From Escherichia phage MirsaeidiM_Esher6, in the sequence record PQ585404: DNA of 22,558 nt; one strand, 5' to 3'. The notes under the pieces are model-generated. The model saw only the letters and a program-made list of their open reading frames with translations, made no database searches and was not told the origin of the DNA. Positions 2,851 through 17,763 of this stretch are shown piece after piece. Every line of letters begins with the position of its first letter. The stretch's first letter is position 1. The translations under genes and the position numbers were made by a program.

Positions 2851-5800
2851 TTACTTCTGTTCAAGAGCAGAAAGTCTGGCTTCGATTCTTTCCAGTTTTC
2901 TTCTCTGATAAGCGGCTTCAGCAAAGAAAATTCCGTCAGGCCGAACACCCCACTCCTCACCCTCTTCGTGAATAACCACCTCGGTGTACACAGGTTCTTC
3001 CGTAGTAGTGACATTACCCTCCTCGTCAGTGTGTTCAATGATTTCATTGTGCGAAAATACCGTATCGGTCATCCGTGGATACTTGTCATAGCACAGAACA
3101 GCATAACGACAATTCGTACTGTTTTCATCCATCAGACCATGTGCAATGAATACATCACGAATTTGCTGAGCAATAACCCCGAAGTGAATACGAGCATCAT
3201 TGCCTTTCAGTTGAACAGCATCTAACCACTGGTACATGATGTAGTGAACGTCACCCCAGGCATCTAGGAAAGCATCATCAAAAACTACCGGCTCTGTTTT
3301 CCTCTCCCCGTTAGAAGTAACAATAGGGTTACTTCCTAGGTATGCAGTGGAGAAACGGTTGCTAGGCCCACCAAGCGCAGTGACGTTATCGTTATAAGGC
3401 TTAACATCAGCAGTCTGGAACAGGTGCTCAGCTCCGTTGTAAACTATCCGCCTTGAGTCGGTGTTATTTGCACCATAAAGCGTAATCTGTGCGCCAGAAG
3501 AAGAACTGGTACTGTCGCCTCCGCAAAATATGGTGCGCTGCCCTGCAGGGTTATCAGTCGGTATAGATTTCCCGATAAACCCATATTCACCTTCCATTAA
3601 AACTTCAGAGCGAATGTTACTACTGGTGCTGGCTCTAATGGTCACATGACCTAAACCCAAATCCCCTGTAAATTCCATTGGCGCAGGAACAGTGCGAATC
3701 CCATTCGTATCAAAAAACACGGGAACAGCTCTGTTAGGTACAGCACCATACCTGAAATCACGGGAAACATGATTGCTTGGGCCAATCTTCATTTTGTAGC
3801 AATACAAATCTGAGGGATGACCATCCGATTTGAATGGGTCCTTCGCTGAGTTATCTCCATATGTCCATGGGTTAAAATGGTCCTCTCCACCAAACATGTA
3901 GTAGATGTAATTATCCTTCACAACTACCGAACCAACACCTACACCTGAGTTAACTATTCCGCCCTGATAAATCTGGTCAGTGATGTTAACCAATTCAATA
4001 TCATCTGCATTCCAATTGTTTACATTCAAGCGTGCATAGAAGGTGCGAGGATAAGATGCCTTGTAACGATCATCTGGTGCACCTGCTTCCCATTCATTTT
4101 CTGCACGTTCTGAACCAAACATAATAAGGTCATCCCCTACTTTAGCAAAAGGTAATGTAGTATGATGAACATTATGTGGAAATCTCAGTGACTCCCAAGT
4201 CTGACCTATGTCTCTACTACGATGCAAAGAGCTACCTAGTCTATCCCCACGAGTACCACGAGTGATAAGATACAATACACCATCATAGTACTTGATGCAC
4301 GGTTCTGATGCATCTGGTTCATACTCAGCTGGTATCTGACGACGAACATAGTTAGCTGGATTGTCGAAAGCATTAGGGAAGTAGAAGAGTCCAACTTCGC
4401 GTGGGGCTACATCGCCTTGATGATAACCCATAACAAAGCCATTGTTATCAATAGTAGCAAAGCTATGCACCTCTGTTACACGAGGGATTAGACCGAGGTC
4501 TGTCTTACGCCATGGAGACTTATGGAAAGACGTACCCATGTGCCAATTCTTTCCAGCGTTATTCAAATCTGAAGTCTGCTGGTTGGGTGTAAGAACCGTG
4601 AAGTTGTCCTTATCTATTACGGTTGCAACAGTCATATCACCGGATACACCTGTTACCGCAGAATTAGAGAAGTTAACAAAATCACCCACGAATAGTCCGT
4701 GGTCTGGTACATGTATTGTTGCATATCGCTGATTTGCAGCTTTAGTGATACCACCAGTAAGATGCAGGCTACGAGACATGGGGCGATCCCACAATGCACA
4801 ATTGGTTAATTCGTTCTTGGCTAAAGTACGTGTTTCAATCATGGCAAACAGACGGTTGCGACATACACCCATGCTCATACAGTGATAGTTCACTGTAGGG
4901 TAATCTGGATGCAGATCAGTTAACCACTCTGGAGTAGACCATGTTTGACCATCATCACCAGACTTAACCCATGATACATGCAGACGACTAACACCATGAC
5001 GATCGCCACCCATGTAAGGTGCATATATCACATTATCATATACGAACGCTTTATCCTGAGGCCACGCATTGTAATAAGGGGTGTCCGTTATTTTGAATAA
5101 CTCCCCCTGAACAAATTCCTCAGAGGCATAATAAAGAGGTTGTCCGGGAATGCGCTCATAAAGGAAACGAGTGTTGATGAAGCGACTAATGTCAGGCAGG
5201 GATGTGACCTTATATGTCTTCCCATTGCCATTAATCTTTTGTCCAACCGGTATGTCGTTTAATGCGCTCGTTAACGCTGCTGTATCATCAGTGACACCAT
5301 CCCCTTTAGCACCCCAACCACGAACATCATTTTCATCAAGCCAGCGTGCTCTATGTAATTCAGGGTAGAGTATTGCCCCTTCCGGGTTTGAAATCTGACT
5401 TCTTAAAGCAGCATCACCAACACTAACCCACGCACCTAATCCAATCCCACCAGAAGTTTCAGGAGTTGAACCAGCAGGAACGTTCTTTGGAAGCGTACCA
5501 TCCCAGCGGTAATAATCACCATCCTCTTCCCATAGCAGGACCTCGCTCCATGTTGTAACGTTGTAGCCTTTCTCGAAGGAGCGACGGGTCATATAGCCAA
5601 TTAGACCAGCTTCCCTGATACTCTCAGCGATTCGGCGTGCTTCGTCCTCGCTATCCTTAGCGTTGCCAGCAGAGCTACCAGCAGCATCGGCATATTCCTT
5701 CGCTAAGTCAACCGTTTGGTCTCGACCTTCTTCTGCAATATGGATAGCCTGAAGCTCTGAATTGGTCAGGTCACTAGCTGTCAACACTGAGCCATTCCTG

Positions 5801-6092: not shown

Positions 6093-6115
6093 GTTTCCTA
6101 TAGTGATAGTTTAGT
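6093..6115 (-). promoter_or_regulatory. Phage RNAP promoter upstream of gene 17 (phi17-like)
   Basis: Minus strand reads ACTAAACTATCACTATA|GGAAAC, one of five copies of the same 17-mer followed by G. Overlaps the gene 16 stop codon. Confidence 0.8.
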
Positions 6116-13506: not shown

Positions 13507-15864
13507 TTAGACGGAACGAGCTTTCTTAGCGTATGACGCCTCCCAGCCACATCCAACGATTGACACTGGGGTAGGATAGTCGGACTCTAAGGTTAGACTC
13601 GTGGTTAATGCGTTACCATTCATAGCGAAGCGATACTGCCCGTCACCAATGTTAGTAGTCCCTATGGTTTGCTGACCAAGGGTGTACCCATTAAAGGTGT
13701 TAACGAACTCTCGCTCACCGTTTCTGACAATGAGTCTCAGAGCGCCAGTGTCCTTGTAGTTGACCCAAGCCCGACGAAGCTGTAGACGACCAGTGTCTTC
13801 AGACTGAGTGCCTCTATCATCTTCAATCTTAATCAGGAACCGTGAGAACTTGTAGGACATCATATAGGACCGTCCGATGAACACTGTACGTCCTGACCAA
13901 TCGCCGTTGAGGGTAATCACAGTAGAGATACTGGTTAATTCCCCAAGGTCCAAATAAGCACCCTGACTGTCAATCAGATAGTACCGACCGGGAGACGGAG
14001 CGCTACCGCCATAAGCAGCACCAATGTCAACCGTAGTCTTATATGTGTCAGCATTAAACGAGCCAATTGGGATGACCATAGACACCTTGGAGTCAACGTG
14101 GAGTCTATACGGCTCTGACGGAAAGTCAGTTGCCTCCTTGATGAACTTAAGGTGCTCAATGTCTACCCCTCCTTGATGCTGACGAACGATGAACATGGTA
14201 GAGCCAATAGAAGCAGACGCCAGAATCTTATCATCTTTAGGGAACTCCCAGTGTGACCAAGAGGCTTGAAGCTGTACGCCGTCCTTAAACAAGAACTTGT
14301 AGATGTAGATACGGTTGTATGCACCTGTAGAGTTGACGCAGATGTAGTTCTCAGTCCCTGTACCTTGAATATCAAACACCCCGTTAGGGATGTAGGACAA
14401 TACGTGACCGGTTGTATCATCAGCATCCTTCACATCAGACACATCAGCTACAGCGAAGTATCGCTTAATGCTGGTGAATGACCCACGAGGAGCTGAGAAG
14501 AAGACTGAGCGTCCTACAGCGAACGGTCTGGCATTGTCGCCTAAGGCAAACTCTGAGCCTACATCAAGCTGGATAGACTTCGAGGTAAGGACCCCAGAGC
14601 TTGTCATCACGAACTGAACTTCATCCGACCAAAGTAGTAGCTGCTCGCTAAACGGAACGGCATACTTAAGGATTGAGATTCGAGGGTGGCTTACAGCTAC
14701 ATCAATAGGGTCATCATCACTCAGTGTCGCCACACTCTTAGGGAAGAACGCAAAGTAGCTGGCTGAACGGCTCATGATTACGTTCTCGCCTGACAAGAAC
14801 CCAAGCCTATTCCTGTAGAAGAACACATCGTTAATCGTAGCATCCACGAAGCTAGGCATAGGGTTTGTGTCATCATTCCCAGCACCACGCTTAGACCAGT
14901 CCAGAGCCTTGAACTCAAAGGAGCCATCAGTTTGTCGTACCAGAGCGTGTGGCATTGTGGTGTTATTGAACCCAGTGACAACTCCAGGCTCCACTGTCTC
15001 CTTCCACGTCTTAGTGTTGGAGTCATACATCACGTAGTATTCGTCGGCGCTACTGTTTGTCTCACCTTGAATCTTAATGATATACCCATTAGGAGCGGCA
15101 AGAGGTAGTTTAGAGATTGTCTGCACAGTATCTAGGACTGGGCTTATTAGCTGGTTAGCGTAGCCATCCTCCGTCTCTACTGAGTTAATATCGGTCCCAG
15201 AAGGAGCTGTGATTAGCAGGAATCCAGACCCAAGGTCAAACGTGAAGGTAGGGTAGGCAGTGACAAGAAGGTCTCTCAGAGCTGCACCAATGGCTTGAGC
15301 GTCCACCTTAGGCGGGTCATTCTCGGCATCGTTACCTGCTGGTAGCTTATGCGAGACCTTAACGCCACCGTTGATTCCCACCTTAAGGGTTCGACCATAC
15401 TGTCCACCACGCAGGTTAATTAAAGCTCGTGCTTTGCGGTTATAACCAGAGTGTGACTTCTCGCTTCCACCTTTGACGACAACCTTACGGTTAACGACGA
15501 ACGTATAGTCTGCCACGGTAACGACACGGATGTCATCTCGTGGGTTTGAGGACTTAACGTAGTCTACCTCACCTGACACTGAGTATTGGTTACCACTCAA
15601 GTCAACTACCTGAATGTCGGACCCATTGAACACGATGTAATACTGCTCATGCTCGTCACGGTTAATCAGGTGGAACTTAGGGTTGCTCCCAACGTCGATG
15701 TTAAGACGTCGCTTGAAGACTGTAGGTGGACGCTTCTGGAGTCCATCACTCTCGGATGACCAGCAGTTAACCTGTGCCTCTCCTTGGTCTGAGAACCTCA
15801 GGATGTCAGGCTGTTGGCTAATGCCACCCTTAAGATTTTTTATGCTTTGCGTAATAAGAGGCAT
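13507..15864 (-). CDS. gp12: Tail tubular protein B (T7 gp12-like)
   Basis: 785 aa (T7 gp12 is 794 aa) at the syntenic position after gene 11. ATG with SD GGGAGGG; start overlaps the gene 11 stop. Confidence 0.85.
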   Translation of the reverse strand: MPLITQSIKNLKGGISQQPDILRFSDQGEAQVNCWSSESDGLQKRPPTVFKRRLNIDVGSNPKFHLINRDEHEQYYIVFNGSDIQVVDLSGNQYSVSGEVDYVKSSNPRDDIRVVTVADYTFVVNRKVVVKGGSEKSHSGYNRKARALINLRGGQYGRTLKVGINGGVKVSHKLPAGNDAENDPPKVDAQAIGAALRDLLVTAYPTFTFDLGSGFLLITAPSGTDINSVETEDGYANQLISPVLDTVQTISKLPLAAPNGYIIKIQGETNSSADEYYVMYDSNTKTWKETVEPGVVTGFNNTTMPHALVRQTDGSFEFKALDWSKRGAGNDDTNPMPSFVDATINDVFFYRNRLGFLSGENVIMSRSASYFAFFPKSVATLSDDDPIDVAVSHPRISILKYAVPFSEQLLLWSDEVQFVMTSSGVLTSKSIQLDVGSEFALGDNARPFAVGRSVFFSAPRGSFTSIKRYFAVADVSDVKDADDTTGHVLSYIPNGVFDIQGTGTENYICVNSTGAYNRIYIYKFLFKDGVQLQASWSHWEFPKDDKILASASIGSTMFIVRQHQGGVDIEHLKFIKEATDFPSEPYRLHVDSKVSMVIPIGSFNADTYKTTVDIGAAYGGSAPSPGRYYLIDSQGAYLDLGELTSISTVITLNGDWSGRTVFIGRSYMMSYKFSRFLIKIEDDRGTQSEDTGRLQLRRAWVNYKDTGALRLIVRNGEREFVNTFNGYTLGQQTIGTTNIGDGQYRFAMNGNALTTSLTLESDYPTPVSIVGCGWEASYAKKARSV

Positions 15865-16430
15865 TAGTCCCTCCCGATGTCAGACATCATGTTGTAGCGA
15901 CCAGTGTCCATCTCATACTCCATAACCTGCTGATAGAGTTCTGCTTCCTGCTCACGAAGGTATAGCTCTGACTCCGGGCTACCGAAGAACTTAGCGTTGA
16001 ACTCACGGCTAGCTTTAGTGACGATGTAGTCCCTGAAGACCACAGGCATCTCGGAGAATGGCTTCATCTCCACAAGCTCTACCGTGATAGGGTCGGTGAA
16101 AGTGGTTGACTGAGTGGACAGGTCGTACAGGTATCCACCCATGTTGCTGTAGTAGCTGGTGGCCCCAGCGGTCATTACACGAAGGTATGACGGCAAGAAT
16201 CGAATCCTATTGTCTTGGACATCAGGTGTCAGGACAGCAGCTTCATTGATGTTAAAGTTCCAGCCTTTAGCTTGGACCTGACGATTAACACGATGCAGGA
16301 TACGTTGAGCGTTCGAGACGTCAGCGTTACCTTCGTCAAGCTGTAGGACTGCCGGTTCACCGATAGCAGCTAACATATCGTTGATGGCGTCTAAGTCATC
16401 GTTAGCATTCAGTGGAATGTATTGAGCCAT
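15864..16430 (-). CDS. gp11: Tail tubular protein A (T7 gp11-like)
   Basis: 188 aa; ...AINDMLAAIGEP...AQRILHRVNRQVQAKGWNFN...VTKASREFNAKFFGSPE... matches T7 gp11 motifs. ATG with SD AAGGAG. Confidence 0.88.
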   Translation of the reverse strand: MAQYIPLNANDDLDAINDMLAAIGEPAVLQLDEGNADVSNAQRILHRVNRQVQAKGWNFNINEAAVLTPDVQDNRIRFLPSYLRVMTAGATSYYSNMGGYLYDLSTQSTTFTDPITVELVEMKPFSEMPVVFRDYIVTKASREFNAKFFGSPESELYLREQEAELYQQVMEYEMDTGRYNMMSDIGRD

Positions 16431-16441
16431 AGGTTTACTCC

Positions 16442-16531
16442 TTAACGGTCATAGGCGCTAGACGGTGAGCTGGACAGCAGGTACGCCCAGAATAAGACGA
16501 ATAGTGCTAACCCTGTGTAAATAAGGACCAT
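16442..16531 (-). CDS. Small hydrophobic ORF (29 aa) between the T-phi-like terminator and gene 11
   Basis: Absent from the ORF track. Translation MVLIYTGLALFVLFWAYLLSSSPSSAYDR. SD AAGGAGGG about 4 nt upstream of ATG. Its TAA stop lies inside the gene 11 SD (cgTTAAGGAGtaaacctATG). Confidence 0.4.
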   Translation of the reverse strand: MVLIYTGLALFVLFWAYLLSSSPSSAYDR

Positions 16532-16544
16532 AGTCCCTCCTTAA

Positions 16545-16582
16545 GCAAAAAACCCCTCAAGCACCCGAAGGCACCCAAGGGG
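16545..16582 (-). terminator. T-phi-like transcription terminator after the capsid gene
   Basis: Minus-strand RNA CCCCUUGGGUGCC-UUCG-GGUGCUUGAGGGG followed by UUUUUU. The stem needs G-U pairs, so it forms only on the minus-sense transcript. Very similar to T7 T-phi (AACCCCTTGGGGCCTCTAAACGGGTCTTGAGGGGTTTTTTG). Confidence 0.85.
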
Positions 16583-16588
16583 TTTCAA

Positions 16589-17763
16589 TTAGTTGTTGGA
16601 CTCAGCCAGTTTAGCGGCCCTGTTCGCAGCACGAGTACGCGCAGCTTTCTGTTGAGGAGTTAGAGTCTCCTCTTCAGGTGCAGCCGCTACTGTAGCGACG
16701 TTAGGTTGGCTAAAGGTGCTTACGCCGCTGGGCTGAAAACCAGTGCGCCAGCCGCTTCAGGACGCAGACCACCATGACCCATAGCGTATTTACCAACAAT
16801 CAGGTCACCCTGAGCATCTACGTCACGGTCACGTTCCAGCGCCAAGTCACGCAGCTTCACAGTGCCTACAGCAGAACGGTGAGAGAACAGGCCCACAACG
16901 TTGTCCAGAGCAACTTTAACATCACCAGCAGCAGTAGCTGGGAAGGCGTGCTTCTGACCAGTCGCAATAGTGATACCATCGGCACCACGAGTTTCACCAG
17001 CACCACCCTGAGTCAAGTGTGGAACTTCAACAACCACGAAGCCCATTACGTTACGGATGTTACCAGTCTCTGGGTCAATCAGCGCAGCATAGTTAGCAGC
17101 GTTCGGCATCAGAGCCGCGAGGATTGCAGAGTAGTTGTCAGGCGTGGTGTAGAAGTAACGGTCGCCAGCAGGAACGTAGTTGGAGGTCAGCTTCGCACGA
17201 GCAATGGTCAATTGACCAATGATTGCTTCACCCAGTTTAGCCGGGGTGTTGAGGTCAGCTTTCTTACCAACTCCCAGTACGGACGCAGTGCCCAGACCAG
17301 CGATGTTCTCGTTGGATGCATCCGGGAGGTTACACAGGATCGCCATTTCAGCCAGCACCGCACCATCAGCAGCGATAGCCAGAGCTTCGCCCAACTGGTT
17401 GGAATACTCACCAGCCACGTCGTAGTGGTTCATCGCGTCTTCAATGTCGAAAATCATCACATCGGCAGTCAGCAGACCATCAATGGTAATCACTTTCTCG
17501 GTATGCTTGATACCTTTACGCTTATCGGACAGTCGCTCACCAGGAGCCAGATACACACCAGAGGTGCGACCCATGACCGGGAACTGAGCAGACTTACCGT
17601 TCTGAATGGTACGGACAATATGCTTGTCAGCAGTTACAGAGCGGCGAGTGAATGCGGTCAGGACTTCACCAGCAAATACCTTCAGGAACAACGCTAGAGC
17701 GTCGGAACTGGATTTGCCTTTACCTTGGTCTGTACCAATTTTCTGACCCGGAACGTTTGCCAT
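16589..17763 (-). CDS. gp10B: Minor capsid protein 10B, predicted product of a -1 ribosomal frameshift near the end of 10A
   Basis: Slippery G GTT TTC (plus-strand 16735..16741, complement) lies 4 codons before the 10A stop. The -1 frame stays open for 49 codons (GFQPSGVSTFSQPNVATVAAAPEEETLTPQQKAARTRAANRAAKLAESNN) and stops at TAA 16589..16591, immediately before the terminator hairpin. Confidence 0.6.
16720..17763 (-). CDS. gp10A: Major capsid protein 10A (T7 gp10A-like)
   Basis: 347 aa with extensive identity to T7 gp10A (e.g. LALFLKVF.GEVLTAF, KHTEKVITIDGLLTADV, AILAALMPNAANYAALIDPE, RNVMGF.VVEVPHLT.GGAG, KYAMGHGGLRPEAAG). ATG with SD. Confidence 0.95.
   Translation of the reverse strand: MANVPGQKIGTDQGKGKSSSDALALFLKVFAGEVLTAFTRRSVTADKHIVRTIQNGKSAQFPVMGRTSGVYLAPGERLSDKRKGIKHTEKVITIDGLLTADVMIFDIEDAMNHYDVAGEYSNQLGEALAIAADGAVLAEMAILCNLPDASNENIAGLGTASVLGVGKKADLNTPAKLGEAIIGQLTIARAKLTSNYVPAGDRYFYTTPDNYSAILAALMPNAANYAALIDPETGNIRNVMGFVVVEVPHLTQGGAGETRGADGITIATGQKHAFPATAAGDVKVALDNVVGLFSHRSAVGTVKLRDLALERDRDVDAQGDLIVGKYAMGHGGLRPEAAGALVFSPAA

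Follow-up and report, generated by a model that had tools for sequence, protein, structure and literature searches.

A probable membrane microprotein gene in the slot between the Tphi-like terminator and gene 11 of K1F-like phages

The stretch of DNA analyzed here (the window) comprises 22,558 nucleotides (nt) of Escherichia phage MirsaeidiM_Esher6 (PQ585404). It corresponds to the late region of a K1F-like Kayfunavirus (Autographiviridae, Studiervirinae) whose genes here all lie on the minus strand, and the nearest relative of the window is Escherichia phage MirsaeidiM_Esher7, which is 98.0% identical over the full length. A preliminary description of the window had pointed to an unannotated hydrophobic open reading frame (ORF) of 29 codons between the terminator and gene 11, with a strong Shine-Dalgarno (SD) sequence in front of it and a stop codon embedded in the SD of gene 11. 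This small ORF is the subject of our analysis, and we propose that it is probably a genuine, selected protein-coding accessory gene that encodes a single-pass membrane microprotein and is expressed late by terminator read-through. The locus contains the following features:

16442-16531, minus strand: small ORF, 29 codons plus stop, product MVLIYTGLALFVLFWAYLLSSSPSSAYDR (allele A of the microprotein family)
16536-16543, minus strand: SD of the small ORF, TAAGGAGG, 4 nt ahead of its ATG at 16529-16531
16472-16528, minus strand: predicted transmembrane helix VLIYTGLALFVLFWAYLLS, codons 2-20, from Kyte-Doolittle hydropathy
16445-16471, minus strand: juxtamembrane tail SSPSSAYDR, codons 21-29, matching the motif [ST][GS]-P-x-S-x-[YA]-[DE]-[RK]
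16438-16444, minus strand: gene 11 SD, TAAGGAG, into which the stop codon TAA (16442-16444) is fused, with 7 nt between this SD and the ATG of gene 11 at 16428-16430
16547-16582, minus strand: Tphi-like intrinsic terminator, from the fold, a terminator scan, the annotated terminator in ASO2B and T7 Tphi at the equivalent place
15864-16430, minus strand: gene 11 (tail tubular protein A / adaptor), downstream of the small ORF
13507-15864, minus strand: gene 12
16720-17763, minus strand: gene 10A
16589-16741, minus strand: -1 frameshift tail of gene 10 (10B-like), translated as GFQPSGV...AESNN and stop; annotated as minor capsid protein in the Pipis record

Both the ORF with its strong SD and the overlap of its stop codon with the next SD were present as described, TAA being the first three bases of TAAGGAG. 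In line with the preliminary description, T7 has no gene at this position: Tphi is at 24210, gene 11 starts at 24228 and nothing lies between them. The Tphi-like hairpin of the window (CCCCTTGGGTGCC-TTCG-GGTGCTTGAGGGG, 16553-16582) has a 13-bp G+C-rich stem and a UUCG loop and is followed by a run of six T at 16547-16552. It dominates the RNA fold of the locus and was also detected by the terminator scan.

The interval between the terminator and gene 11 was extracted by position from the IMG/VR relatives of the gene 11 product (gp11), and four states of this slot were observed. The first is the ORF of the window, allele A. The second is a compact junction of 16-26 nt without an ORF, found in K1F and many others. 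The third is a 450-nt insert with an Endonuclease VII / His-Me gene (Pfam PF02945, E=1.6e-19), found in L010. This locus, IMGVR_UViG_3300045988_000061, carries the homing-endonuclease-like Endonuclease VII / His-Me finger protein at 1014-1498, and the slot is therefore regarded as an insertion hotspot. The fourth state is a different ORF of 29 codons (allele B, MFYLLTALGLFVSFWAIILLTGPCSPYDR), present in vB_EcoP_F- and ZG49-type phages. Since allele B was located by its position and not by similarity, the comparison between the two alleles is unbiased.

By tblastn, allele A was found in 46 phage records, 27 of them identical, and allele B in 15. Syntenic homologues were found by the same search in six Przondovirus records (MFIVLSAVSLAVATMLYVVVTGPCSPYDK) and in 17 records of Klebsiella and Proteus Molineuxvirinae, where the product is 37 amino acids (aa) long (MYYLLCVTLLLFASFWCYVLATGPVSVAERRDNANSK). 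Every Kayfunavirus, Przondovirus and Molineuxvirinae record was matched at one place only. All 23 sequences that were read were open, and all of them lay, on the same strand, in the slot that immediately follows the capsid terminator and immediately precedes tail tubular protein A. Each copy from Kayfunavirus and Przondovirus has exactly 29 codons except for L034, in which a late frameshift replaces YDR with MTAKE; the other 22 of the 23 sequences contain neither stops nor frameshifts. The stop-in-SD layout is common to allele A, allele B (TAGGAGGG) and Przondovirus (TAAGGAGG), and in these three allele groups the stop lies 11 nt ahead of the gene 11 ATG, whereas the Molineuxvirinae version overlaps the start of gene 11. 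Conservation of the ORF and its frame across the K1F/T3 group, judged by synonymous versus nonsynonymous change, had been proposed initially as a check, and the result was favorable: the frame is kept in every copy read apart from L034. K1F and most relatives do not have the ORF, which in them is absent rather than disrupted, making it an accessory and not a core gene. Allele A is also carried by a phage named for another host, 'Klebsiella phage phi1_146013'. PV615262.1, deposited as 'Acinetobacter phage vB_Aba_01KA', is 98% identical to an E. coli Kayfunavirus here and has a length near that of vB_Eco_1RS (PV615263), and its host label looks doubtful.

By base composition, the probability that a frame starting with ATG remains open over a further 28 codons is about 0.25. 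The length of the ORF alone is therefore not significant, and its significance comes from the comparative data. The window and allele B are 54% identical in nucleotides and 52% identical in amino acids. The proportion of synonymous differences (pS) between them is 0.87, with synonymous sites saturated, compared to a nonsynonymous proportion (pN) of 0.34 (Fisher p=2.6e-5). Frames +1 and +2 of the same pair gave pN/pS of 1.0-1.7 and contained 1-5 stops, with no such signal. When minimal changes inside the four allele groups were pooled, 28 were synonymous and 26 nonsynonymous, compared to 24% synonymous expected under neutrality, giving a binomial p=1e-5 and a crude omega of about 0.3 within alleles. 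DNA identity among the allele groups is only 45-57%, and three of the groups are exactly 29 codons long. The nonsynonymous changes in codons 1-20 are mostly hydrophobic swaps (V/F, A/V, I/V, I/M, L/I, A/T), with G7W as the exception. The intact frame in the copies read, together with an excess of pS over pN in the proposed frame only, supported the hypothesis that the ORF is a genuine small gene.

The peptide of the window has its best 19-residue Kyte-Doolittle window at residues 1-19, with a value of 2.22. The corresponding values are 2.2-2.6 across the alleles, and every allele consists of a hydrophobic helix of about 19 residues followed by a tail of the form [ST][GS]PxSx[YA][DE][RK]. In the alignment, P23 and S25 are invariant across the four allele groups, and conservation is highest in the nine residues at the C-terminus. 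The charge counts of the window's peptide are +1/-1, and the net charge of the tail is 0. The suggestion of a single-pass membrane peptide is consistent with the retention of this hydropathy in all alleles, as judged by hydropathy only.

The gene behaves as a cassette on near-identical backbones. The 400-nt flanks of the window are 95-99% identical to those of phages with allele B (L006), with an empty slot (K1F, L008, L009) or with the endonuclease (L010), and phages whose gp11 is 100% identical to that of the window show all three slot states. In 56 T7- and T3-like gp11 loci that are more distant (47-57% identity), the junction is 14-38 nt long and contains no hydrophobic ORF. The compact junction is the default; the gene was added in certain lineages only and has moved between those in which the terminator and gene 11 flanks are similar. 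The edges of the indel are at the two ATGs, with microhomology CTATGG / TATG, so that the cassette is effectively the ORF body plus a new SD and ATG. Recombination within the conserved flanks (terminator and gene 11) probably accounts for its gain, loss and exchange. Outside these phages the gene was not encountered: blastn of 5,426 E. coli genomes gave no match to the ORF, and tblastn of plasmids gave no match to the microprotein. A degenerate DNA pattern had only three chance matches, interrupted by stops, in the genomes of 185,579 species. The same pattern found four true matches in metagenomes, all in the same phage context, plus one chance match, and in IMG/VR it found no loci beyond those already included.

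Presence/absence variation was also observed next door. At the junction of gene 11 and gene 12 (window position 15864), ASO2B, LM33_P1, vB_EcoP_F and ST31 have an ORF of 75 aa with an RNA-binding or DUF3850 annotation; the window, K1F and YZ1 have none, indicating a second slot of this kind (L002 1437-1664). On the other side of the terminator, gene 10 contains a T7-like slippery sequence, GGTTTTC, at 16735-16741 on the minus strand. The -1 frame is 50 codons long and ends with TAA at 16589-16591, just ahead of the terminator.

The K1F-type promoter consensus TAAACTATCACTATAGG was recovered from the window and matches the one given in the ASO2B record. Scanning the window with three mismatches allowed identified phage promoter sites at 6097, 13464, 17870, 18858 and 21679, and none between gene 10 and gene 13. 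Therefore, the small ORF and genes 11 and 12 are transcribed only by read-through of the terminator. A promoter inside the ORF, for which the 'CACTAT' in GGGTTAGCACTATTCG was considered, was rejected since the scan gave no site there. The scan also returned a sixth, weaker match with three mismatches, TGAACTATCACTGTATG, at 4876-4892 on the minus strand inside the tailspike gene 17; matches with three mismatches are expected by chance 0.02 times in the window. Some T3-like relatives (L116, L122, L128) have a T3-type promoter, AACCCTCACTAACAGGAGG, about 30 nt ahead of gene 11 and overlapping its SD. Kayfunavirus has no promoter at that place, hence its reliance on terminator read-through.

The initiation region of the small ORF, GCTTAAGGAGGGACTATGG, is essentially the gene 11 initiation region GCTTAAGGAGGGCCTATGG of relatives without the ORF. 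Several of these relatives (L013, L015-L018, L021, L029) use that region for gene 11 directly (GCTTAAGGAGGGCCTATGGCT), and the initiation region of allele B likewise matches the K1F gene 11 leader. Because this region drives gene 11 where the ORF is absent, we regard the ribosome-binding site of the small ORF as proven. From the geometry of the stop codon within the SD, a putative translational coupling to gene 11 is plausible. Such coupling would not be required: gene 11 is preceded by an SD of its own, and in relatives without the ORF it relies on the identical upstream initiation region directly.

The preliminary description called the ORF unannotated, which proved to be only partly correct. 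Many sister records omit it or annotate it wrongly, while some GenBank and UniRef entries list the identical peptide. A coding sequence (CDS) is annotated over allele A in about a third of the 46 records, and the identical peptide has been deposited as 'hypothetical protein' under QZI78483.1, QZI79740.1, QZI79920.1 and URY99520.1 and in UniRef as A0A9E7M778. Together with WQZ00629.1 of Klebsiella phage vB_KpnP_cmc355D, these Kayfunavirus and Przondovirus entries occupy the same position, with the allele A sequence identical. The deposited entries are bare gene calls without family, name or function, and the comparative analysis of the microprotein is given here. In the Pipis record, PV714130.1, the CDS at 22582-22686 (L001 741-845) is in a different frame and begins with a TTG inside the terminator stem. 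In several other records, including ZG49 (KX669227.5, at 23174), PmP19 (MT680615.1) and several Klebsiella Molineuxvirinae, tail tubular protein A is annotated over the small ORF.

Searches against Pfam, PHROG, NCBIfam and PADLOC gave only noise above E=0.06, and no allele matched the PADLOC defense or exclusion models. HMMER with the 32-aa in-frame translation from the window against 1.84 billion representatives returned only the allele A representative (P0003) and two longer proteins. One of these, P0005, is repetitive and hydrophobic and looks spurious, and the other, P0004, has no aligned stretch. Other identities were tried and rejected. A structured RNA or RNase site was ruled out: there was no Rfam match (E up to 1), and the folds of the four alleles were no better than shuffles, with z-scores of -1.8 to +1.3 and no common structure. 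A lipoprotein or o-spanin-like product was also ruled out, since no lipobox [LVI][ASTVI][GAS]C is present; the TGPC of allele B and Przondovirus has a Pro at -1, and allele A and the Molineuxvirinae version have no Cys there. Pfam and NCBIfam scans (E up to 10) did not match the type I toxin families Hok/Gef, TisB, Ldr, Ibs and ShoB, and no promoter-like site facing the ORF was found on the opposite strand in the scan. The ORF is not the phage's own holin either, which is the gp17.5 homologue of 65 aa at 2544-2741, in the lysis cassette with Rz at 1733-2182, both assigned by synteny.

Several points weigh against the reading of the ORF as a selected membrane microprotein gene. About 70% of close relatives, as well as K1F and T7, do not have the gene, and any function is thus dispensable for growth. 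The two main allele A haplotypes differ by five nonsynonymous changes (V2F, G7W, A9V, S20P and A26P) and no synonymous ones, and constraint within allele A is not demonstrable on its own; recombinant intermediates are found in other phages. Esher7 (L134), 98.0% identical to the window overall at the nucleotide level, differs from it at 5 of the 29 microprotein residues. This haplotype pattern is compatible with local mosaicism or with relaxed or diversifying selection, the counts being too small to tell. More generally, 29 codons give small counts for selection statistics. The Przondovirus and Molineuxvirinae members were obtained by tblastn, which introduces a bias toward protein similarity, with synteny as the independent support. 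The transmembrane call was made from hydropathy alone, and a weak hairpin, AGGGAC-UAUG-GUCCUU, includes the start codon of the window and could dampen initiation. Nothing was found in the literature on the ORF, ribosome profiling and mass spectrometry included. No other gene tracked the presence of the microprotein in eight whole genomes (three with allele A, two with allele B and three empty), a small sample, and neither homology, literature nor a co-varying gene indicates a specific function.

Read-through of the Tphi-like terminator yields late (class III) RNAs, which carry the small ORF together with the tail genes 11 and 12. If the microprotein reading is correct, the ORF would be translated from its full-consensus SD at roughly gene 11-like mRNA levels. 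A peptide of 29 residues is still within the ribosome exit tunnel at termination. Because it never emerges from the ribosome before termination, insertion into the inner membrane would be post-translational. The peptide may then bind, via its helix and juxtamembrane motif, a membrane protein that belongs to the host or to the core phage machinery, and act through it. Ribosomes that end on TAA would sit on the gene 11 SD, and coupling or re-initiation would be a likely side effect and not the purpose of the arrangement.

As to the role of such a peptide, we consider phage-host or phage-phage conflict, or envelope or lysis timing, more likely than virion assembly. A conflict-related role, either in superinfection exclusion or against abortive infection, is tentatively possible, and modulation of another host membrane protein is doubtful. 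A role in lysis or envelope timing is unlikely. A specific form of the conflict proposal would be a module that blocks DNA ejection by superinfecting T7-like phages or neutralizes a membrane-acting abortive-infection effector. The cassette-like turnover weakly favors this module, which we put forward as a speculative candidate. Such an effector could, for instance, respond to the capsid protein encoded next door, as F-plasmid PifA responds to T7 gp10. If true, the conflict module would account for the alternation of deeply diverged alleles with an empty slot or a homing endonuclease on backbones that are nearly identical, and for the patchy spread of the gene across two Autographiviridae subfamilies.

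Within the microprotein reading, the peptide might instead be a lysis-timing or membrane-depolarizing factor (a mini-holin, an antiholin or a toxin-like pore former) that modulates the triggering of gp17.5. It would be co-expressed late with the structural genes, its size and hydrophobicity resemble those of membrane-active toxins such as TisB, which has 29 aa, and lysis modulators, like this gene, are often dispensable and variable. However, the gene lies outside the lysis cassette, and the canonical holin and Rz are encoded elsewhere. The peptide is far shorter than the 65-residue gp17.5 and, with charge counts of +1/-1, has no charged C-terminal domain; the holins described so far are roughly twice as long as this peptide or longer. 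No toxin or holin family of Pfam, NCBIfam or PHROG was matched. We therefore consider this function improbable.

A different explanation is that the ORF is a cis-acting leader, in which translation itself, or arrest of the nascent peptide at xPxSxYDR-stop, tunes the delivery of ribosomes to genes 11 and 12 just past the terminator, while the released peptide would do nothing by itself. The fusion of the stop codon to the gene 11 SD in three allele groups, the high conservation of the C-terminal nine residues and the location of the whole 29-mer inside the exit tunnel at termination are all in line with it. Folding also placed the gene 11 SD of allele B in a hairpin with the 3' end of the ORF, which translation of the ORF would open. 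However, this sequestration was seen in allele B only and not in allele A, Przondovirus or Molineuxvirinae. The Molineuxvirinae version has kept the helix and TGPxS without YDR or the stop-in-SD layout, and a leader would not need a transmembrane-grade segment of about 19 residues to be maintained across four alleles at 45-57% nucleotide identity. In addition, gene 11 has its own well-spaced SD and is translated in most relatives directly from the initiation region that the small ORF uses here. A leader function is thus quite unlikely to account for the ORF.

Finally, the ORF might have arisen by chance within a hypervariable slot, in a non-coding spacer or in a scar left by recombination, with neither purposeful translation nor selection. 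This reading would fit the unremarkable probability of the open frame (P about 0.25), the four states found in the hotspot (no insert, allele A, allele B or endonuclease VII), the absence of the segment from most relatives and the five nonsynonymous to zero synonymous differences between the main allele A haplotypes, but it is very improbable given the same open length in independently diverged alleles, the much higher pS than pN in the proposed frame only (p=2.6e-5), the excess of synonymous polymorphism (p=1e-5), the retained hydrophobicity with P23 and S25, the perfect SD and the absence of stops and frameshifts in 22 of 23 sequences.

The microprotein gene is best compared with several known groups of small membrane proteins and phage cassettes. 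With AcrZ, MgtS, KdpF, PmrR and CydX, the microprotein shares a size of about 30 residues and the arrangement of one helix plus a few polar residues. Bacterial small inner-membrane regulators of this kind presumably bind a larger membrane protein. Unlike the AcrZ-type regulators, the microprotein is phage-encoded, has no relation to a Pfam or NCBIfam family and has no counterpart in E. coli or on plasmids. The type I toxins (TisB, Hok, Ldr, Ibs and ShoB) are similar in length, in their single hydrophobic helix and in the potential to perturb the membrane when abundant, whereas the microprotein is encoded in a lytic late operon with no antisense-RNA arrangement evident. The T7-group gp17.5 and other holins are likewise small, phage-encoded, late and inserted in the membrane; the microprotein differs from gp17.5 in being less than half of its 65 aa, in having no charged C-terminal domain and in its location in the structural-gene block. 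In its use of a slot shared with an endonuclease gene (L010), its presence or absence on near-identical backbones and its own SD, the gene resembles the homing-endonuclease or moron-like cassettes of T7-like phages. Compared to those, the cassette is only 96 nt long, has no enzymatic or mobility function, brings neither promoter nor terminator with it and depends on transcription reading through Tphi. The microprotein is a new uncharacterized member of the class of small phage membrane proteins and does not represent a new principle.

T7-group genomes are among the best annotated, and the junction of Tphi and gene 11 is normally treated as a fixed spacer of 15-40 nt. Our analysis places a probably selected microprotein gene in this junction in some K1F-like, Przondovirus and Molineuxvirinae phages. 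Many of these phages are candidates for therapy against E. coli K1, uropathogenic E. coli or Klebsiella. Annotation pipelines systematically miss this gene or assign it to the wrong frame, and its putative membrane-active product could influence the timing of lysis, the host range, exclusion or the evasion of defense. The natural series of allele A, allele B and empty slot on near-isogenic backbones provides a ready experimental system for a phage membrane peptide of 29 residues.

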